Positions 2,777 through 11,246 of a DNA stretch of 64,000 nt are shown one piece after another (positions within the stretch are counted from its first letter, which is position 1; the number at the start of each line of letters is the position of its first letter). The notes beneath the pieces were generated by a model that worked only from the letters and a program-made list of their open reading frames with translations, ran no database searches and was not told the DNA's origin. The stretch lies in NCBI GenBank assembly GCA_964646765.1, contig CAZYIA010000001.1, positions 274,105 through 338,104 of the forward strand. Reading direction: 5' to 3'. Both the position numbers and the translations under genes were made by a program. This DNA is from an uncultured Candidatus Saccharibacteria bacterium (lineage in GTDB: Bacteria; Patescibacteriota; Minisyncoccia; Phycocordibacterales; UBA9973).

Positions 2777-5578
2777 CTATTCGAGAATACTTTTTAAAAT
2801 ATCTTCAGGAACTTCTTTTGAAGCAGTAGACTCTTTTCGAGAAACATTAGATTCTGGAGAGGTTTCAGAAACTGACTCTGGTGATGAAGTTTCTTCCTTC
2901 GCTAATTCTTGCTCACGGGCTTTTCGCTCCTCTTCTAACTTCTTTTCTTGTTCTAAGGTTCGAGCTTCGGCTTCTTCTGCCGCCTTAAGAGCTTTTTGTT
3001 TTTCTTCTTGCTCAATTTTCACAGCCGCTTCAAGTCGGGCTTTTTCTTGCTGTTCTTTCCGAAGAGCTTCTTCATGGGCTACTTTGAGGGCTTCTGCTTC
3101 TCGTTTCCGTTCTTCTTCGGCCTTACGAACAACTTCTATTTCGAGTGCCTTCTTTTCTGCCTCAAATTTTTGACGCTCCTCTTCCTGCACTCGACGAACT
3201 TTTTCGAGAGCCTCCTGCTTTTCTTTTTCAATTTTTTCTTCAAGTGCTTTCTTTTCTGCCTCAATTCGTTCTTTTTCCTCTTTAGTTTTACGTTCCCGCT
3301 CTAGTGCTTCTTGCTTTTCGCGAAGAAGAGCCTCTTCTTGAGCTGTATGTTTTTCTTCATTAATGGTAGTGGTAGTTGGATCTTCACCACGTAGGACTGG
3401 ATCTATGTTTTTTGGTTCATTAAGTTCAGCTTCCTCGGCAAGTCCAATACCAGCTTGAGAAAGGGCTGTAGCCAGCGTATTTTTTGTTTCTTCTGCTGCT
3501 TCTTTCTTAGGAGTCATGAAAACAGGAGAAGCTACTGTTGGTGCATCTTTTTTAAGTGCAGAAAGCGATATTGTTTCTTGAGGCTTTTCAATAACTGGTT
3601 CAGCTATACCTTCTTGTTCTATCGGCTTTGTAGCAACTGCTGGCTTAGCTGGAGCGCCCATTGTTTTTGAAAGCGCTTGATTTAGGATACTTCGAAGTCC
3701 AGCGGTATCGGGAGCTTTACGTTCTTTTGTTACAGGAACTTTTACTACTCGAGGTGGCGGCGTGCGTGGAAGATCATCTTTTTTTGCTCCATCCGGAGTT
3801 TTTATACTCTGAGGCACTCGAAACGCCGTTTGCACTTGCGGTTGTATTTGTACTTGAGCTTCAGATGGCTTCTTATAAGCCCCTTTCGGTAATGGCATAT
3901 CATCTTTACCAGCCTTAATAACCCCAATAGGCGGCATATCAGGCCGATCTACCACGGGACGAACTTTTGGTCGTTCGCCAGTAGATCCTCCCCAATCACT
4001 CCTTGGTTTCGAAGAACCACCGGTAAATTCAATACCGAGCGCGGCAAGTGCATCGTATGAAATATTATCTTTCTTTTCTTTTGGTGGACGGAACCCTGGT
4101 GCCGGTTCAAGTTCACCTTGCTTAATTTTAAAAAGACATTCTTTACAATAAATTGGCAAACCTGGTTCTGGTTCAAACGGAACGTAAATGGATTTTTTAC
4201 AATTAGTACATTCAGCGCGATATTTGCCAACAGCTTCACTTCCCGCATTTTCTGGGTTACTGGTTCCTTGGCCAGGCACCGTTGAACTCCAACGGTTAAT
4301 TTCCTCCTCTACATCAGTGCGCGAACGAGTATACATGCGGCGTGAAGTATCAATAATATACTGTTCGGTTTCTTTTGATTCGTGCACCTCAAGTGGCGGC
4401 AAGGTTTTTGCTGAAAATGGTCGCGAGGTAACCCCATCCACCATGAGCTTTGCATAAATATGATAGTTCGGAAGGTTTACGAAATCTTCAATGACGAATT
4501 CCGGTTCAAATTCTTTTTCGAGTGCTTCGGCATCTTCTGCGCCAACACGGAAGATGATAATTGTTCCAACGTTACCAAACACGGCATCTTTCACCGCGCT
4601 ACCAGTTTCAGTTTCAAGCTGGGCAACATATTGATGCGCAATAGTAAGACATAAGCGATATTTTCGAGCTTCTGAAAGAATAGAAGCAAATGAATCGGTT
4701 ACGAAGTTTTGGAACTCGTCTACAAAAAGATAAAAGTCTTCACGCTTATTTTCTGGAATGCGCACACGCTCCATAGCGGAAAGCTGAATTTTGGTAATGA
4801 GCATTGCACCAAGAAGTGCTGAGTTATCTTCACCAATACGGCCTTTCGACACATTAACCAGAAAGATTTTTTTCTGGTTCATAATATCGAAAATGTTTAT
4901 AGTTGAACGCTGCTGGCCCACTACGTTACGTACGATATTTGATGAAAGGAATTGACCAACTTTGTTTTGAATCGGCGCAATAGCTTCATTACGAAACTGG
5001 TCACGCCATGCTTCATATTCGTGCACCCAAAAAGCCTTCACCACAGGGTCTTTCAAATTCCCGATGATGTACTGACGATAGTCCTTATCCACTAGCATAC
5101 GCGGAATACCAAGAAGTGTGGTATTAGGCGTATCGAGAAGCGCTAAAATGGTGTTGTTCAAAATATATTCCATTCGAGACGACCATGCGTTCGCCCAAAT
5201 TTTGGTGAAAATTCCCATCAAACCTGAAGCCACCAAGTGTTTATACTTCGGGTCATCAAGTTGCATTGGGTTAAAACCAATTGGAAAATCCGTATCCGCT
5301 GGATTGAGGTATACGACATCTTCTGCACGTTCTTTAGGAACAGCCGTTATGATTTTTTCTACGAGTTCACCGTGCGGATCTACCACACAAACACCTTCAC
5401 CGGTACGGATATTCTGGATAATCATGTTCTCCAGCATCACAGACTTACCGGTACCAGATTTACCAAGCACGTACATGTGCTGGCGTCGGTCTTTACGCTT
5501 AATGCCGAAAACTTGATCCATGCCACGGAAATGTGTCCGGGCAAAATATGTAATGTCCTGGTTTAGTGGAACTTCCAT
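2777..5578 (-). CDS. soluble VirD4/TraG/TraD-like (type IV coupling protein family) P-loop ATPase with long disordered/proline-rich linker, C-terminal CxxC...CxxC zinc ribbon and K/E-rich coiled-coil tail
   Basis: 933 aa; Walker A VLGKSGTGKS followed by VDPHGE (DPKGE-like motif of VirD4/TraG), Walker B YLFVDEFQNF, TIAHQYVAQL (TraG-D_C-like xQSxxQL region); no TM helices; zinc ribbon CTNCKKSIYVPFEPEPGLPIYCKEC encoded around 4125-4225; last ~190 aa are E/K/A/R-rich heptad-like low complexity. Confidence 0.7.
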   Translation of the reverse strand: MEVPLNQDITYFARTHFRGMDQVFGIKRKDRRQHMYVLGKSGTGKSVMLENMIIQNIRTGEGVCVVDPHGELVEKIITAVPKERAEDVVYLNPADTDFPIGFNPMQLDDPKYKHLVASGLMGIFTKIWANAWSSRMEYILNNTILALLDTPNTTLLGIPRMLVDKDYRQYIIGNLKDPVVKAFWVHEYEAWRDQFRNEAIAPIQNKVGQFLSSNIVRNVVGQQRSTINIFDIMNQKKIFLVNVSKGRIGEDNSALLGAMLITKIQLSAMERVRIPENKREDFYLFVDEFQNFVTDSFASILSEARKYRLCLTIAHQYVAQLETETGSAVKDAVFGNVGTIIIFRVGAEDAEALEKEFEPEFVIEDFVNLPNYHIYAKLMVDGVTSRPFSAKTLPPLEVHESKETEQYIIDTSRRMYTRSRTDVEEEINRWSSTVPGQGTSNPENAGSEAVGKYRAECTNCKKSIYVPFEPEPGLPIYCKECLFKIKQGELEPAPGFRPPKEKKDNISYDALAALGIEFTGGSSKPRSDWGGSTGERPKVRPVVDRPDMPPIGVIKAGKDDMPLPKGAYKKPSEAQVQIQPQVQTAFRVPQSIKTPDGAKKDDLPRTPPPRVVKVPVTKERKAPDTAGLRSILNQALSKTMGAPAKPAVATKPIEQEGIAEPVIEKPQETISLSALKKDAPTVASPVFMTPKKEAAEETKNTLATALSQAGIGLAEEAELNEPKNIDPVLRGEDPTTTTINEEKHTAQEEALLREKQEALERERKTKEEKERIEAEKKALEEKIEKEKQEALEKVRRVQEEERQKFEAEKKALEIEVVRKAEEERKREAEALKVAHEEALRKEQQEKARLEAAVKIEQEEKQKALKAAEEAEARTLEQEKKLEEERKAREQELAKEETSSPESVSETSPESNVSRKESTASKEVPEDILKSILE

Positions 5579-5713
5579 TTTCTAATCCGCCTCATAGGAG
5601 AGGTTATTTAAAGTTACCTCACAAGTATACCATACTAGGCAAACGAAAGATGAGTTCTTTGACTCAAAGTTAATTTGTGTGCTTAAATTGACCGAATTTA
5701 AAAAGTGAACTAT

Positions 5714-6247
5714 ATGGAAAAAAACGTGGAATTAAATTTTGACTTAACCTTTGATGAAAGCGTAACAATTTACTTTGAAGAATCTGCGCATTCCTTCAAA
5801 ACAAAGTTTTCAGCTACCTTAATGCTTATGGCTATTGCCCACACCCATTTTCGCGGAAGTATGCACAAGGTACTCCGTAGTATTGATACTATCAACCGTG
5901 CTGATATTTTACTTTCAGGAAAAACAGTTAATGAAATAACGAAAGTAAAAAAATTTTTACGCGCACATAAACTCACAGGAACTACATACCGATACTTACA
6001 TGCGTACTGCTACAACTACTTTGTCGAAAAACCAAAGTTTATACAATACCAATCTTTAGGAGAACCTCATGCAGGTGAACTACTCTTACCGTGTGGTCTC
6101 AGATTTATATCTCTATACCAACAAAACTTACTTATCGAAGTAGAAACCTACTATGAGCAATCACTCATTAAAGACTGGGAATACGAGGAACTCCGGTACC
6201 TCATATATAAAAGTGATTTACGTCCCCATAACCCCCTTTTGAACTAA
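5714..6247 (+). CDS. hypothetical protein (no recognisable domain)
   Basis: ORF track 5705..6247 (GTG), ATG at 5714 (MEKNVELNF...); only plus-strand gene inside the ATPase/Cys-rich locus; followed by a strong terminator. Confidence 0.4.
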   Translation: MEKNVELNFDLTFDESVTIYFEESAHSFKTKFSATLMLMAIAHTHFRGSMHKVLRSIDTINRADILLSGKTVNEITKVKKFLRAHKLTGTTYRYLHAYCYNYFVEKPKFIQYQSLGEPHAGELLLPCGLRFISLYQQNLLIEVETYYEQSLIKDWEYEELRYLIYKSDLRPHNPLLN

Positions 6248-6252
6248 CAAGT

Positions 6253-6287
6253 AACAACCTGCTTTCCTCGGCAGGTTGTTCTTTTTT
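6253..6287. terminator. rho-independent terminator (AACAACCTGC-tttcctcg-GCAGGTTGTT + T6), also abuts stop of minus-strand gene 6286..7950
   Basis: 10-bp perfect stem, 8-nt loop, TCTTTTTT tail. Confidence 0.65.
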
Positions 6288-7950
6288 ATGCAAACGCTTG
6301 GTTATAACAACTTTCGCAGTAGAGAATTTCCGGTCGGTTGGGAGAATATGATGACTCAATTTTTTTATTGCAATTTGCGCATTCTCGAGTGAAGAGCTTA
6401 TTTGGCCCGCGAGCTTTAAATCGGCGCAGGTGTCGACATTCGGGACATTGCCGCGGAAGTGGAATAGAAAGTTTTTTATAGAACGTAAACTCATTTGGAA
6501 TAATGCGATAATTCTTTTTACATTCGGTACACTCAAAAATTTCTTTTACAATCTCGTCCTTTGTTTTGCCAATTGAATCTGATACATCAGCCCAGCTAAT
6601 TGTCGCTTTTCCGAATGTTCCTCGCGGCGTTTCTTCCCACTTAAAACCCTGAGCGAGAGCTTCTTCTTTCGTAAGTGGGTACTCAATCATAGCTGATGAT
6701 TCGTTATAACCGAAAGAAGAAAAAGTAGCCGGATAAAATTCACCATAACTTCCCTCTTGTTTCATTTTTGCTACTATTTCGGAGCGCAACTTTTCATATT
6801 CTTCTGGAGAATATTGCTTATTTAAGATCGTGTTTTTTGCTTTTCGAAAACCAACGCAACCAAAAATATTTTGGGAGTTTGGACAATTCACGGAGTAACC
6901 AACGAACTGAGAGCTCCAACAATAGAATCCGCAAATAACATTGGACCCTTCAATACCAGTATTCATGGTGTTGTAGAGTAACTCCGCTCCACGACCAGCA
7001 GTATTACAGTCCATGCAGTCTTTAGCCCCACGCCAAGCATGTACCGAATAGGCACAATCTTCGGCGTCATACGAATGAAAACAATGGCGATTATTTTTAA
7101 CGTTTGTCATGTAATTCCCAGTCGAATTGTAAACGTTATACACTTCGGCAAATTTTCGTGGCTGATCTTTAATAAACTCTGTAAATTGTTTTCGAAAAGC
7201 CTCTACTCCAGAATGAGTATCGAGACGAAACTCTGCTAACTTTTTTTCGTATTCTTCTTTAGAATATTGTGCATTAAAAATACAGTATTTTTGATTACGA
7301 AGATTAATACAGCCTAAACAATTAGTGCAGCCGCGACAATCCAACAAAAATGCACTATCGGTACATGAGTGGACGCTTTTACAATACTTAATTCCGTATG
7401 AATCATAGCAGTCATCAACTTCGTACGATCGTTCAACCTGTTGGGTAAATGAACAATCGACGAGATCTTTTGAAACTTGAATCCAATATGAGTGAATTGC
7501 ATCTTCATTGTTTGAACTTTCAATAACGAAATAACAATTTTTATTGTCAGCCGCGTAATTCATGTACTCACAATTAACTGCCCGCATAGAAACAAGGCCT
7601 GGTTTTGGCACTTTCATCCATAGTTCATACCACTGATCGAGAAATGGCCGCGATGGATCATAGTCCATAGCGTAATCTGCCCCGCTCCAGTCTTCCGAAA
7701 ACCAACAGTCATAACACCAAACCACATCAGGTTTATTCAGCGAAAACTGACAGATAGTATCTTTTTTACACTTATCACAAGGACGCTTATAAAAACTGCG
7801 TTCGTTGCGAAAATTAAGCCGTAATTGGGATCGGCATTCCGGACATAGTTTTGGCGGCAATACACCTATTTTTTCATAGAAGGAAAAATCATCAGGTTCG
7901 ATAACAAATTCACTATTACATTTAGTGCAAAATCGATTTTCTGTCGCCAT
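6286..7950 (-). CDS. large cysteine-rich multi-zinc-ribbon protein, paralog A (function unknown)
   Basis: 554 aa, ~45 Cys, no signal peptide/TM; N-terminal ribbon CTKCNSEFVIEPDDFSFYEKIGVLPPKLCPECRSQ; two internal Cys-rich modules ending in ...CLGCINLRNQKYCIFNAQYSKEEYEKK and ...FGCVGFRKAKNTILNKQYSPEEYEKL; C-terminal tandem ribbons CTECKKNYRIIPNEFTFYKKLSIPLPRQCPECRH and CANCNKKIESSYSPNRPEILYCESCY. Confidence 0.7.
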   Translation of the reverse strand: MATENRFCTKCNSEFVIEPDDFSFYEKIGVLPPKLCPECRSQLRLNFRNERSFYKRPCDKCKKDTICQFSLNKPDVVWCYDCWFSEDWSGADYAMDYDPSRPFLDQWYELWMKVPKPGLVSMRAVNCEYMNYAADNKNCYFVIESSNNEDAIHSYWIQVSKDLVDCSFTQQVERSYEVDDCYDSYGIKYCKSVHSCTDSAFLLDCRGCTNCLGCINLRNQKYCIFNAQYSKEEYEKKLAEFRLDTHSGVEAFRKQFTEFIKDQPRKFAEVYNVYNSTGNYMTNVKNNRHCFHSYDAEDCAYSVHAWRGAKDCMDCNTAGRGAELLYNTMNTGIEGSNVICGFYCWSSQFVGYSVNCPNSQNIFGCVGFRKAKNTILNKQYSPEEYEKLRSEIVAKMKQEGSYGEFYPATFSSFGYNESSAMIEYPLTKEEALAQGFKWEETPRGTFGKATISWADVSDSIGKTKDEIVKEIFECTECKKNYRIIPNEFTFYKKLSIPLPRQCPECRHLRRFKARGPNKLFTRECANCNKKIESSYSPNRPEILYCESCYNQAFA

Positions 7951-7968
7951 TTTTCGATTCTAGCACGC

Positions 7969-9756
7969 TTACAAATAACGTGCCTGGTAACAGCTCTCGC
8001 AGTAAATAGTTTCTGGCTTTTCTGGGGCATAGGTCGTTTCAAATTCGTTTGAGCACGCTCCAGAATGCTGGTGACCAGTTTCATCACACTGACACTTTCG
8101 GTGCCATAATTTCATCGGACCCCGAGAACGGAGACGCATGTAATGACGACAGTTTGGGCAAAGGCTAGGTAATGGCAAGCCAAGTCGTTTATAAAACTGG
8201 AGTTCCTGTGGCACTAGGCGAAACGCTTTCGAACATAAATGTCCTTCACAGGCACCTTGGTGGGCGCATTCGATAACTTCGTTTAAAATAGTACTTTCAT
8301 TTACTTCAGACAGTGAATTTGGAACAGTATCTTTACTCATCGTAATGGTATAAGACTTTTCTTCTGGTTCTTTCCAAGTAAAACCCTGGGCCAAGGCTTC
8401 TTCTTTTGAGAGTGGGTAGTAATCAAAAGCAATAGTTTCGTTGTAGGCAAACGGCGAAAGTTCAGCCGGGAAAAATTCTCCAAACTTGTATACTCTTCCC
8501 TTTCCATCTTGGTACGGCATGGCATTCATGTGCTCAATAATCTTCGGCACAAGTTTTTCGTATTCTTCTTTGGTATAGCGCTTGTTTAAAATCGAGTAAC
8601 TACCATTCTTCACTCCGACACAACCAAAGCAATTCTGGTTCGATGGTGAGTTGTAGAGATACATTGAGTTTGTCGATGACTTTGCATAAATGCAGAACGA
8701 AACATTTTGACAGCCTGAGAACACGCCAAACGAGTCATAAATGAGCTCAGAACCATGACCAGCATGTGAAGCGTTTCGAGCATCTTTTATATCACCGCCT
8801 GAAAGAAAGAAGTTTTTTAAATCTTCTGAACCAGGAACTAAATCAAAACAGTTAATACAGTTTTTAGCATTGGCAATATTATCACCGGTGCAATTAACTG
8901 ATTTAATAATGTGGGCGAAACGATGCGGAAACGTCAGCTTAAATTCCTCAAATTGCTTACGGACTTTTTCTAAGCCTAGACGAGTATCAAGCTTCAGTTC
9001 TTTTGCCTTCGCTTCATATTCTTCTTTTGAATATTCTTGGTTAAAAATGCAGTGCGATTTATTGCGGAGCGAAACACAACCAATACAGTTGTCACAATTT
9101 ACACAGTCATACAGAAACGTTGAATCCGAACAGCTTTTACAATATTGACCATAGCGAAGCTTGTAACATTCTTGCGAATCAGTACACTCGTAGCACAAAT
9201 TACATTTCTCAACCAAATATAAATCCTGACTATCACGAGAATGCATATTAAAAGTACTGTAGGAGCAATCTTCATTGTAGTCACCACCAAAAACGAGATA
9301 GCAATTTTTATTACTCTCAGTACAGTTACAGTAATCACTATTCACCGCATTCCAGTTCATGAGCGAAGGCCACGGCACTTCGCGAATTAGTTCCTTGAGT
9401 TGTTCAAAAAACGGCTTTGAAAAATCAACATCTTTGCCATAGCTATATGGATCCCAGCCATCACCCCACCAATATTCGCGATCATAAACCGTTAGTGGCT
9501 TGTCGTCAGAATAGATAGAGATTATTTTTTGACCTTCTTTTCCGGGGGCGTTATCAGTACGTCGATACAGAACATTTTGGTTGCGAAACACCATGCGGCG
9601 CACGAACTGACATTCTGGACACCAAGTTGGTGGCGGCACTTTCATTTTCTGATAAAAGGCTAAATCATCCGCATCCAACAAAAATATCTTACTGCAATTT
9701 TTACAGGCAACTTCCATATGCCTATAGTACTCAAAAATGCTCCGTATACAAACCAA
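7969..9756 (-). CDS. large cysteine-rich multi-zinc-ribbon protein, paralog B (function unknown)
   Basis: 595 aa (true start may be MEVACKNCSK at 9717); same architecture as 6286..7950: N-terminal ribbon CKNCSKIFLLDADDLAFYQKMKVPPPTWCPECQF, internal modules ...CIGCVSLRNKSHCIFNQEYSKEEYEAK and ...CFGCVGVKNGSYSILNKRYTKEEYEKL, C-terminal ribbons CSKAFRLVPQELQFYKRLGLPLPSLCPNCRH and CSNEFETTYAPEKPETIYCESCY. Confidence 0.7.
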   Translation of the reverse strand: MVCIRSIFEYYRHMEVACKNCSKIFLLDADDLAFYQKMKVPPPTWCPECQFVRRMVFRNQNVLYRRTDNAPGKEGQKIISIYSDDKPLTVYDREYWWGDGWDPYSYGKDVDFSKPFFEQLKELIREVPWPSLMNWNAVNSDYCNCTESNKNCYLVFGGDYNEDCSYSTFNMHSRDSQDLYLVEKCNLCYECTDSQECYKLRYGQYCKSCSDSTFLYDCVNCDNCIGCVSLRNKSHCIFNQEYSKEEYEAKAKELKLDTRLGLEKVRKQFEEFKLTFPHRFAHIIKSVNCTGDNIANAKNCINCFDLVPGSEDLKNFFLSGGDIKDARNASHAGHGSELIYDSFGVFSGCQNVSFCIYAKSSTNSMYLYNSPSNQNCFGCVGVKNGSYSILNKRYTKEEYEKLVPKIIEHMNAMPYQDGKGRVYKFGEFFPAELSPFAYNETIAFDYYPLSKEEALAQGFTWKEPEEKSYTITMSKDTVPNSLSEVNESTILNEVIECAHQGACEGHLCSKAFRLVPQELQFYKRLGLPLPSLCPNCRHYMRLRSRGPMKLWHRKCQCDETGHQHSGACSNEFETTYAPEKPETIYCESCYQARYL

Positions 9757-9782
9757 CGGAGGACTGTGTCAAAATAGTGACA

Positions 9783-11246
9783 CTAGATTAGCGGCTCAGC
9801 GACTTCTACTTTTTCAGCAGGCGCTCCTCCACCATCAGATTTATTACCACGAGTAATAGCCGCTTTTTCTTGAGCAGAACGAATGATGGTTGCTTCTTCT
9901 TCGGCAATAAGTTTCTTGGCGGCGTCGGCTGAGATAGCAAATTTACGACGAGAAGCTTCAATAATTTTTGTGCGAAGTGATCCATGAGCAGCTGGCAATA
10001 CTTTCAACGTTTCAGCAGAAAATGGATCATATGATTCACCGTCGATAGTCATTTTAACGTAAAACTCTCCCACACCGAGGTTAATCATATCTTTTACATC
10101 GAAAATCGGAGCAAATTCTGGTTTGAGTTTTACGGCATCATCACCACCCACGCGGAAACAGATAATAGAACCAACGTTACCGAGCACGGCTTGAGCAACA
10201 CGTGGTGTCAGCTGACCAACGTATTGGTGCGCTACCGTAAGGTTAATAGAATATTTACGCGCCTCAGAAAGAATGTTTTCGAAAGTATCGGTCACCACGT
10301 TTTGGAACTCATCCACATAGAGATAAAAATCGTAGCGCTTGTCGTGTGGAATTTTTGCTCGCGCCATACCAGCTTGCTTAATTTTGGTCAGGAACATTGC
10401 ACCGAAGAACGAAGAGTTTTCTTCACCAATCTTACCCTTACAAATGTTGATGAGCACAATTTTTTTGTTGTTCATCAGCCATTCAATGTCAATTTTGTTT
10501 TCCTTCTGGCCGAAAATGTTACGGAGCATCGGATCAGAAAGAAATTGCCCGAGTTTGTTAACAAGCGGGATAATAGCGTCGGTATCAAATTTTTCCGACC
10601 AGTCGGCGAATTCGATTGCCCAGAAGCGCTTCACCATATCGTCTTCAATGTACTCAACCACTTTTTGACGATAGTTACGGTCGGTAAGCATCGAAATCAT
10701 TCCGCGCATGGTTGCGTATGGATAGTCGAGAAGCGCGAGTGTGGTAAAGCGGAACACGTGCTCAAGACGCGGCGTCCAGTTAGCACCGAATTGCTTTTCC
10801 AACACTTCAATCAAACCTTGGGTTAGTTGGTGTTTGAATGCGGGGTCAACGTTAGCGAGCGGATTAAATGAGGCCGGATAGTCCATGTCAGACGGATCGA
10901 TGATGCATACGTCTTCCATACGGTTCTCTGGAATAAAGTCGAGAATGTCATCAATAAATTCTCCGTGCGGGTCGATGACACAAATGCCGTGGCCATAGGC
11001 AACATCCTGGCGCACCATCAGTTCCTGGAGTTTTGATTTTCCCACACCAGACTTCCCTACAATGTAGAGGTGGCGGCGGCGGTCAACGCGTTTAATACCA
11101 AAAACGTATTTCTTTTCTTCGAGAGCGGCCACATAGTTGGTGCGGCCGATAAATGACGCGTCTTCTGGAGGCACTTTACCAAACTCCGGCAGTTCTGTCG
11201 GTGGCGGCGCGTATTTAATTATTTGAATCTTATTCGCTCGTGCCAT
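9783..11246 (-). CDS. soluble VirD4/TraG/TraD-like P-loop ATPase (paralog of 2777..5578 N-terminal 480 aa, no C-terminal extension)
   Basis: 487 aa; IVGKSGVGKS, IDPHGE, YLYVDEFQNV, TVAHQYVGQL, GNVGSIICFRVGGDD - same motif order and spacing as the 933-aa protein. Confidence 0.7.
   Translation of the reverse strand: MARANKIQIIKYAPPPTELPEFGKVPPEDASFIGRTNYVAALEEKKYVFGIKRVDRRRHLYIVGKSGVGKSKLQELMVRQDVAYGHGICVIDPHGEFIDDILDFIPENRMEDVCIIDPSDMDYPASFNPLANVDPAFKHQLTQGLIEVLEKQFGANWTPRLEHVFRFTTLALLDYPYATMRGMISMLTDRNYRQKVVEYIEDDMVKRFWAIEFADWSEKFDTDAIIPLVNKLGQFLSDPMLRNIFGQKENKIDIEWLMNNKKIVLINICKGKIGEENSSFFGAMFLTKIKQAGMARAKIPHDKRYDFYLYVDEFQNVVTDTFENILSEARKYSINLTVAHQYVGQLTPRVAQAVLGNVGSIICFRVGGDDAVKLKPEFAPIFDVKDMINLGVGEFYVKMTIDGESYDPFSAETLKVLPAAHGSLRTKIIEASRRKFAISADAAKKLIAEEEATIIRSAQEKAAITRGNKSDGGGAPAEKVEVAEPLI

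Follow-up and report, generated by a model that had tools for sequence, protein, structure and literature searches.

The locus considered here raises the question of why a motor ATPase should carry the same kind of cysteine ribbon as the proteins encoded next to it. It lies in a stretch of 64,000 nucleotides (nt) from an uncultured Candidatus Saccharibacteria bacterium (contig CAZYIA010000001.1, positions 274,105 to 338,104), hereafter the window, in which four genes, all on the minus strand (nt 2777-11246), encode two TrwB/VirD4-like ATPases and, between them, two Cys-rich proteins. An earlier note on this DNA had reported a zinc-ribbon motif shared by the long ATPase (ATPase 1) and both Cys-rich proteins (Cys1 and Cys2), and had taken it as a sign of a common binding partner or of domain shuffling within a system. 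Our joint reading, to which we assign a probability of roughly 0.7, is that the ribbons represent two zinc domains that are already catalogued, that they are encoded in a conserved gene cassette of Patescibacteria, and that they would serve as adaptors in a soluble ATP-driven machine.

Two types of ribbon can be told apart by the spacing of their cysteines. Type A (CxxC-x17-CxxC) is present in ATPase 1 and in both Cys-rich proteins, and type B (CxxC-x24-CxxC) in both Cys-rich proteins (Table 1). The A copies have the pattern C-x2-C-x7-[FY]-x-P-x5-[ILV]-[YW]-C-x2-C in common, and in ATPase 1 the ribbon takes up four of the only six cysteines of the whole protein. The Cys-rich proteins are built as [B-Arg-rich linker-A]-duplicated Cys-rich core-[B-Arg-rich linker-A], the linker between B and A being conserved and predicted to be helical, with B always outermost at the N-terminus and penultimate at the C-terminus; in Cys2 the order reads [B-A]-core repeat 1-core repeat 2-alpha/beta region-[B-A]. 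Cys1 and Cys2 are paralogues with 39% identity over their full length (BLASTP alignment), and in the same alignment a relic of the N-terminal A ribbon of Cys1 falls opposite C58, C61, C79 and C82 of Cys2, the surrounding sequence being still alignable. At the C-terminus of Cys1 the first knuckle of the B variant is expanded to C497-x10-C508, enclosing C503, H499 and H506, and only the second knuckle of the A variant is canonical; its first knuckle, CxC..HxH..C, predominates in the consensus of the Cys2 orthogroup. Residues of Cys1 are numbered on the 595-aa open reading frame (ORF) that begins at an alternative TTG start at nt 9756, while the gene call on an identical public contig gives 582 aa.

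A census of 225 full-length members of the Cys family shows how general this layout is. The N-terminal B ribbon occurs in nearly all of them, as does the C-terminal A ribbon in canonical or degenerate form, and the N-terminal A ribbon in ~63%, the other ~37% being without it. Moreover, the ribbon cysteines, together with the linker residues R40, R44, R506 and R510, are among the positions conserved in at least 90% of these paralogues.

Six-frame translations of 1.41 Mb, comprising the window and 80 related loci, were then scanned for the two spacings. CxxC-x17-CxxC was found in 205 Cys-family ORFs and 12 ATPases, and elsewhere in just two junk-frame ORFs; CxxC-x24-CxxC was found in 237 Cys-family ORFs and three junk ORFs. 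Furthermore, profile-profile comparison with hhalign aligned the ATPase A ribbon with the N-terminal A ribbons of the Cys-rich proteins at 96.8% probability (E 2e-10) and with their C-terminal A ribbons at 96.1% (E 3e-9), while the N-terminal and C-terminal B ribbons matched each other at 99.3% (E 4e-20). Given the pattern census and the profile comparison, the sharing of the ribbon goes beyond chance, and the ATPase ribbon and the A ribbons of the Cys-rich proteins are, as far as profiles can tell, homologous. A single diverged family embracing both A and B was considered and rejected, since every A-versus-B comparison gave a probability of 2-12%; hence A and B represent two families and not one.

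The observations of the earlier note thus fared unevenly. All the peptides that it quoted are present on the minus strand in their places, and the ribbon that it saw in both ATPase 1 and the Cys-rich proteins is borne out by the profile comparison. The second ribbon, which it called related to the first, belongs to the separate type B, and its consensus ending in P-x2-PE-x2-[IL]YC does not fit, as ATPase 1 has GLPIYC and the Cys-rich proteins have PE-x-[IL]YC. The copies that it listed are real, and two had escaped it, namely the N-terminal A ribbon of Cys2 (aa 58-82) and the relic in Cys1. Finally, the motif, which it had called distinctive, is not so, both ribbons being curated families.

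Indeed, profile matches identify type A with Pfam PF23477 (zf_Tbcl_2) and NCBIfam TIGR04272, and type B with Pfam PF13451 (zf_Tbcl), all of them already catalogued. The ATPase 1 ribbon scores 33.4 bits against PF23477, above the cut-off of 27, and 33.5 bits against TIGR04272, just below the cut-off of 36. The N-terminal B ribbon of Cys2 stays under the PF13451 cut-off (Table 1) and Cys1 gives no PF13451 match. Among 67 diverse paralogues (representatives of 50%-identity clusters, with Pfam matches counted at E<=0.01), PF23477 was matched by 28 and PF13451, whose model the type-B signature F...FY.K...P.P..CP.CR resembles, by 21 (best E 6e-8), and no further domain family recurred. PF23477 is present in all 120 closest homologues of the long ATPase, the ribbon itself being counted in 107 of the 120, and long-ATPase homologues already bear the name 'CxxC-x17-CxxC domain-containing protein' in NCBI and JGI. 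Zinc binding has been shown by inductively coupled plasma mass spectrometry for small TIGR04272-type proteins of Methanosarcina mazei (PMC12704099), and the ribbons of the window are predicted zinc-binding treble-clef/ribbon domains. The canonical A copies have the spacing of TIGR04272/PF23477 members such as these and the same core, '[FY]-x-P ... [VI]-[YW]-C'. The known members are small; in contrast, the A copies of the window sit on a 440-aa TrwB-like motor and at the ends of 550-aa Cys-rich proteins, the latter copies being divergent and sub-threshold. In sequence searches of the PDB, neither the two ribbon families nor the ATPase had a solved representative, and the only matches were weak ones to LIM fingers: the A profile bears a weak likeness to the second zinc finger of the LIM domains in CRP1 (1b8t, E 8e-5), CRP2 and MLP, a finger with the identical CxxC-x17-CxxC spacing.

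In order to place the A domain in a wider context, we used a profile of 22 A ribbons to search 1.84 billion representative proteins; at E<=0.001 it matched 3305 protein clusters. The best 150 of these comprise 112 Cys-family clusters, eight long ATPases or tail fragments, and 30 small proteins in which one to five tandem ribbons are joined by low-complexity linkers rich in R, G and K, as in the known TIGR04272/PF23477 members. Some of the small tandem-ribbon proteins come from Thermoplasmatota and Heimdallarchaeia and have no connection with VirD4-like ATPases. The A domain is therefore widespread, archaea included, and not specific to VirD4-like systems. The earlier note had asked whether the matches of a ribbon profile cluster with such ATPases, and would have lost its case if they were generic and unassociated with these protein families; VirD4-like long ATPases are recovered, and the breadth of the remaining clusters goes part of the way towards that refutation. 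A stand-alone metagenomic protein of 194 aa (P0309), arranged as B-A-A, scores above both Pfam cut-offs, and B followed by A is thus a combination seen again beyond the Cys-rich family; this protein retains the basic stretch after B, with no core for it to pack against. Two metagenomic fragments of long ATPases (P0253 and P0257) have two A ribbons in the tail instead of one.

At the level of gene order, the four genes of the window form a conserved, co-directional chromosomal cassette, in which a short ATPase is followed by 1-10 Cys-rich paralogues and then by a long ATPase. This cassette is found in Paceibacteria, Gracilibacteria and Peregrinibacteria, and the window has exactly its order. 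Within 20 kb, as many as 10 Cys-family genes can stand in tandem. The short ATPase lies on the strand of the array in 15 of 15 cases and upstream of it in 12 of the 15, and the long ATPase lies on that strand in 11 of 11, the median distance to a Cys gene being 54-66 nt. An ATPase was present within 10 kb of Cys genes in 26 of the 80 loci, against a chance expectation of ~0.04 ATPase per 20 kb, taken from ~2 homologues of type IV coupling proteins (T4CPs) per genome of ~1 Mb (PMC12102498). Beyond the three gene families, a search for further conserved neighbours of the cassette brought up nothing but antisense shadow ORFs and various housekeeping genes. Since these families form a conserved co-directional unit, the suggestion of domain sharing within a system was a fair one. 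The literature that we searched holds no description of the cassette, of the B-linker-A capping modules or of the Cys-family core. The domains themselves are known and the ATPase ribbon is already annotated; the core family, like the cassette, is apparently undescribed.

Taken together, the B-linker-A module caps both ends of an internally duplicated Cys-rich core, and the long ATPase has a single A copy on a flexible linker behind its motor, followed by a disordered tail. These data suggest the following arrangement. All components would be cytoplasmic, and the ribbons would be adaptors by which the paralogues and a hexameric motor are brought to one common ligand. The cassette would then be an independent, soluble machine driven by ATP, and not the membrane coupling step of a type IV secretion system (T4SS). 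As to the ligand, there is a slight preference for nucleic acid: motors of the TrwB/HerA type translocate DNA, the A domain elsewhere sits with RGG-like linkers, the B-A linker is a conserved Arg-rich stretch, and the stand-alone B-A-A protein keeps its basic stretch even without a core. The next option would be direct docking of the paralogues on the motor, which would fit the weak likeness of the A profile to a LIM finger, the LIM domain being a protein-binding module. A broader version, in which a Patescibacteria-wide cytoplasmic machine couples a TrwB-like motor pair to up to 10 or more Cys paralogues per locus through ribbons, for example in DNA or RNA handling, is put forward tentatively and with somewhat less than even odds.

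Several observations weigh against this arrangement. A narrow hidden Markov model (HMM) built from 107 ATPase ribbons detected 27 Cys-family copies but none of those in the window, so that the A relationship is visible only at the profile level, and the C-terminal A ribbon of Cys2 reaches only 16.9 bits against PF23477 (cut-off 27) and 13.2 bits against TIGR04272 (cut-off 36). The domain being so widespread, its sharing alone does not prove a functional link. In 54 of the 80 loci no ATPase lies within 10 kb, many of these loci being ended by contig edges. With respect to nucleic acid in particular, that ligand is purely inferred, the LIM-like finger weakly points to protein instead, and the A copies of the Cys-rich proteins are less basic than the ATPase copy, with whole-protein pI values of 5.9-6.3.

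The strongest competing explanation starts from the ATPases themselves. ATPase 1 and ATPase 2 are paralogues with 47% identity across 418 aa. In the AlphaFold 2 (AF2) model of ATPase 1 (pLDDT 78.5), an all-alpha insert of eight helices (~aa 110-235) lies between Walker A and Walker B, and the ribbon is tethered to the motor via a low-confidence linker (aa 436-450). The best Foldseek match of this protein is TrwB (1e9s, E 6e-12, TM-score 0.64), with HerA close behind, and the alignment to TrwB covers about 420 of 424 target residues. ATPase 2 matches the Pfam families DUF87, T4SS-DNA_transf, TrwB_AAD_bind and TraG-D_C. The feature that defines T4CPs is a conserved TrwB-type nucleotide-binding domain, most of them also having an N-terminal transmembrane domain and a few a variable C-terminal domain (PMC7431656). 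Such a nucleotide-binding domain is recognised here, with matches to PF10412, PF12696 and PF02534 and with the Walker motifs in place. Moreover, the P-loop motor, the modelled all-alpha insert and the TraG-D_C region are like those of TrwB of R388, VirD4 and TraD.

The ATPases could thus be genuine VirD4-type coupling proteins and the Cys paralogues secreted T4SS effectors or substrates, with the terminal ribbons as their recognition domain, much as effectors of other bacteria have a conserved domain at the C-terminus that interacts with VirD4. The structural match to TrwB and the matches to Pfam T4CP families agree with this, as do the paralogue arrays that have a common terminal module and directly adjoin the ATPase. 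In Patescibacteria, furthermore, epibiotic growth requires the T4SS, and the majority of T4CP homologues are encoded at a distance from virB4 (PMC12102498, PMC12857230). However, neither ATPase has an N-terminal transmembrane domain (maximum 19-residue hydropathy 1.17 in ATPase 1 and 1.29 in ATPase 2), Walker A of ATPase 1 starts as early as aa 39, and no hydrophobic or transmembrane segment is present in any of the four proteins. No VirB4 or relaxase was found among the larger ORFs of the window or as a conserved neighbour in the related loci, and the best score against the NCBIfam TraD/VirD4 models is 50-51 bits, far under their cut-offs of 250-650. Unlike T4CPs, the ATPases form a paralogous pair flanking Cys-rich arrays, and it is the motor itself that bears a ribbon. 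As for the putative cargo, the paralogues have neither signal peptide nor toxin domain, they are of ancient origin and, unlike fast-evolving effectors, strongly conserved (Cys2 orthologues share 58-87% identity), and zinc-stabilised folds at both ends would be awkward for translocation in an unfolded state. Secretion of the paralogues is for these reasons an unlikely explanation, though the best placed of those considered besides the soluble machine.

The Cys-rich core of the family is without any Pfam or NCBIfam model. It is internally duplicated in Cys2 (aa 131-241 versus 279-392, hhalign 99.9%, E 5e-35), and its cysteines recur strictly in phase at every third residue. The AF2 model (pLDDT 80.5, pTM 0.83) is confident at the ends and less so in the core (pLDDT 57-75), which is weakly beta-solenoid-like; comparators are the thin solenoids of the ryegrass ice-binding protein (3ult) and the spruce budworm antifreeze protein (1m8n), the left-handed beta-helix acyltransferases and the gamma-carbonic anhydrases. 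Core and terminal modules differ in charge, the former being acidic (pI ~5.1) and the latter mildly basic. The core cysteines could be a further metal site or the small inward-facing residues of a tight solenoid. Were they to bind Fe-S clusters or more zinc, the proteins might be enzymes or electron carriers and the ribbons merely structural, which would account for the conservation of the four cysteines of the CxxCxxCxxC motif and for a model confidence that is lowest in the core, as expected if metal ligands were missing from the model. Most other core cysteines are, however, just 40-80% conserved, the motif is reduced to a single Cys in repeat 2, no Fe-S family is matched, and the every-third-residue phase is what a tight solenoid would require, which makes a metal-cluster or redox role of the core very improbable.

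The distribution of the Cys family bears on a further possibility. At 90% identity the family comprises more than 6394 clusters, every one of them labelled hypothetical and of Patescibacteria origin, and at least 584 stretches in GTDB species genomes were confirmed as relatives, spanning Paceibacteria lineages, Gracilibacteria and Peregrinibacteria. Within a locus the paralogues have a median identity of 39.6% and a maximum of 60%, with no recent duplication, and the Cys2 orthogroup is single-copy in 29 loci. Such ancient single-copy orthogroups point to specialised subunits or substrate-specific variants, rather than to arms-race diversification. A phage or mobile-element origin of the family was rejected, as no match was found in 50,697 phage records. 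An anti-phage or conflict system, in which a HerA/MADS-like ATPase would work with a diversified set of effectors or sensors, might have been suspected from the multi-paralogue arrays, from PADLOC mad8 matches at 41-43 bits and weak HerA matches, and from distant relatives of the ATPase in large Bacillus phages. Furthermore, the motor fold is similar to that of HerA-NurA, HerA-Sir2/Nezha, HerA-DUF4297 and TdpAB (Foldseek E 1e-8 to 3e-11, with matches to the HerA-Sir2, HerA-DUF4297 and TdpAB complexes), and, as in those systems, a soluble hexameric ATPase is encoded beside partner proteins. Unlike theirs, however, the partners in the window are devoid of nuclease, NADase, Sir2 and other effector domains and match neither PADLOC nor PHROG models, the HerA score stays at or below 28 bits, and an adjacent effector belonging to a HerA or MADS system is lacking. 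The cassette is a core-genome feature among housekeeping genes, conserved together with its orthogroups across whole classes, and not a mobile defence island, and the Cys family is absent from the phage records. A role in defence is hence scarcely credible.

Lastly, the idea that the ribbons are ordinary CxxC...CxxC knuckles whose occurrence in neighbouring genes has no functional meaning can draw on the frequency and taxonomic breadth of the A domain and on window copies that fall below curated thresholds and escape the narrow HMM, but it is largely refuted by the pattern census, in which both spacings are essentially confined to two gene families, by a profile homology of 96-97%, by the conservation of the ribbons, which rank with the best-conserved regions of the paralogues, and by the tight same-strand adjacency of the ribbon-bearing ATPase in 11 of 11 cases, and it retains very little probability.

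Returning to the soluble machine, the coordinates of its putative parts are collected in Table 1. The ATPases beside the arrays fall into a short subtype of ~490 aa without ribbon and a long one of 640-1003 aa, in which the ribbon directly follows the motor and precedes a low-complexity tail. The short motifs conserved in the tail of ATPase 1 look like docking peptides for partners.

Table 1. Features of the four-gene cassette in the window (all on the minus strand; nt, window positions; aa, residues of the respective protein).
Feature	nt	Strand	aa	Remarks
ATPase 2, short TrwB/VirD4-like ATPase	9783-11246	-		487 aa; no ribbon, no transmembrane segment
Cys1, Cys-rich protein 1	7969-9717	-		582 aa from ATG at 9717; 37 Cys
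Cys1 N-terminal type-B ribbon	9610-9705	-	18-49	CKNCSKIFLLDADDLAFYQKMKVPPPTWCPEC; CxxC-x24-CxxC
Cys1 relic of N-terminal type-A ribbon	9472-9555	-	68-95	all four Cys replaced: D68, P71, D92, Y95
Cys1 C-terminal type-B variant	8146-8268	-	497-537	first knuckle expanded, then ...FRLVPQELQFYKRLGLPLPSLCPNCR
Cys1 C-terminal type-A variant	7987-8094	-	555-590	CQCDETGHQHSGACSNEFETTYAPEKPETIYCESCY; first knuckle CxC...HxH...C
Cys2, Cys-rich protein 2	6286-7950	-		554 aa; 36 Cys
Cys2 N-terminal type-B ribbon	7834-7929	-	8-39	PF13451 zf_Tbcl 20.4 bits, cut-off 24
Cys2 N-terminal type-A ribbon	7705-7779	-	58-82	CDKCKKDTICQFSLNKPDVVWCYDC; canonical x17
Cys2 core repeat 1	7228-7560	-	131-241	ends ...DCRGCTNCLGCINLRNQKYCIFNAQYSKEEYEKK
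CxxCxxCxxC core motif of Cys2	7309-7338	-	205-214	C205, C208, C211, C214 conserved in 80-95% of 225 paralogues
Cys2 core repeat 2	6775-7116	-	279-392	ends ...NIFGCVGFRKAKNTILNKQYSPEEYEKL
Cys2 C-terminal type-B ribbon	6436-6531	-	474-505	CxxC-x24-CxxC
Cys2 C-terminal type-A ribbon	6307-6381	-	524-548	CANCNKKIESSYSPNRPEILYCESC; canonical x17
ATPase 1, long TrwB/VirD4-like ATPase	2777-5578	-		933 aa; bears A ribbon
ATPase 1 motor domain	4274-5578	-	~1-435	Pfam TrwB_AAD_bind (PF10412) 58.2 bits
ATPase 1 Walker A	5441-5464	-	39-46	GKSGTGKS
ATPase 1 Walker B	4709-4735	-	282-290	FYLFVDEFQ
ATPase 1 type-A ribbon	4136-4210	-	457-481	CTNCKKSIYVPFEPEPGLPIYCKEC; exact x17 spacing
ATPase 1 tail	2777-4135	-		disordered, E/K-rich; conserved short motifs
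Tail motif GELxPxxGF	4091-4117	-		87 of 120 homologues
Tail motif LGIEF	4025-4039	-		100 of 120 homologues
Tail motif ISLSALKK	3548-3571	-		
Tail terminal motif	2780-2818	-		KEVPEDILKSILE; KEVPEDxLxKxLE in 85 of 120 homologues

A third ATPase subtype is also found beside Cys arrays, with an N-terminal extension of 150-385 aa that has no Pfam match and without C-terminal ribbon; its members are L059:11630-13903 and L059:3968-6517 (Gracilibacteria), L023:4805-7189 (Liptonbacteria) and L081:16706-18565. The distant relatives of the motor in large Bacillus phages, namely gp156 of phage G (JN638751.1, 91999-93180) and proteins of SPO1-like phages, show 21-29% identity; the match to PHROG 5156 scores 229 bits, and this profile has ~400 extra N-terminal positions.

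Cys2 and ATPase 1 are separated by a gap of 707 nt that holds an unrelated plus-strand ORF (nt 5705-6247, 177-180 aa), by which the cassette is interrupted. This ORF matches no Pfam, NCBIfam, PADLOC or PHROG family, and none of the other related loci has a homologue of it, yet the gene call on the identical public contig includes it. Directly beside the 3' end of ATPase 1 lies a plus-strand pair (nt 1124-2735) consisting of an extracytoplasmic function (ECF)-type sigma factor (Sigma70_r2/r4) and an overlapping DUF5667 protein with an S/T-rich low-complexity tail, which is probably the anti-sigma factor of the pair. Otherwise, the window is ordinary Patescibacteria chromosome; besides the ECF sigma factor it encodes glutamate dehydrogenase, UvrA/UvrC, Mur ligases, penicillin-binding proteins, aminoacyl-tRNA synthetases, IMP dehydrogenase and five tRNAs.

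For Patescibacteria, the cassette bears on a large set of motors. In 2918 genomes of the group, 5713 VirD4-like genes have been counted, of which 148 lie near virB4, and the T4CP homologues away from virB4 may be 'exapted for other functions' (PMC12102498). With the cassette, such orphan VirD4-like motors gain a genetic partner that is conserved and a domain that both have in common, and hence a concrete candidate for an exapted function; some genomes of ~1 Mb spend more than 15 kb per locus on the Cys family. For zf_Tbcl and zf_Tbcl_2, both uncharacterised, the cassette is also the first multi-domain context that recurs. If the proposed machine is real, it would explain the role of thousands of orphan T4CP homologues in reduced genomes and would provide the first functional context for two orphan families of zinc-ribbon domains.

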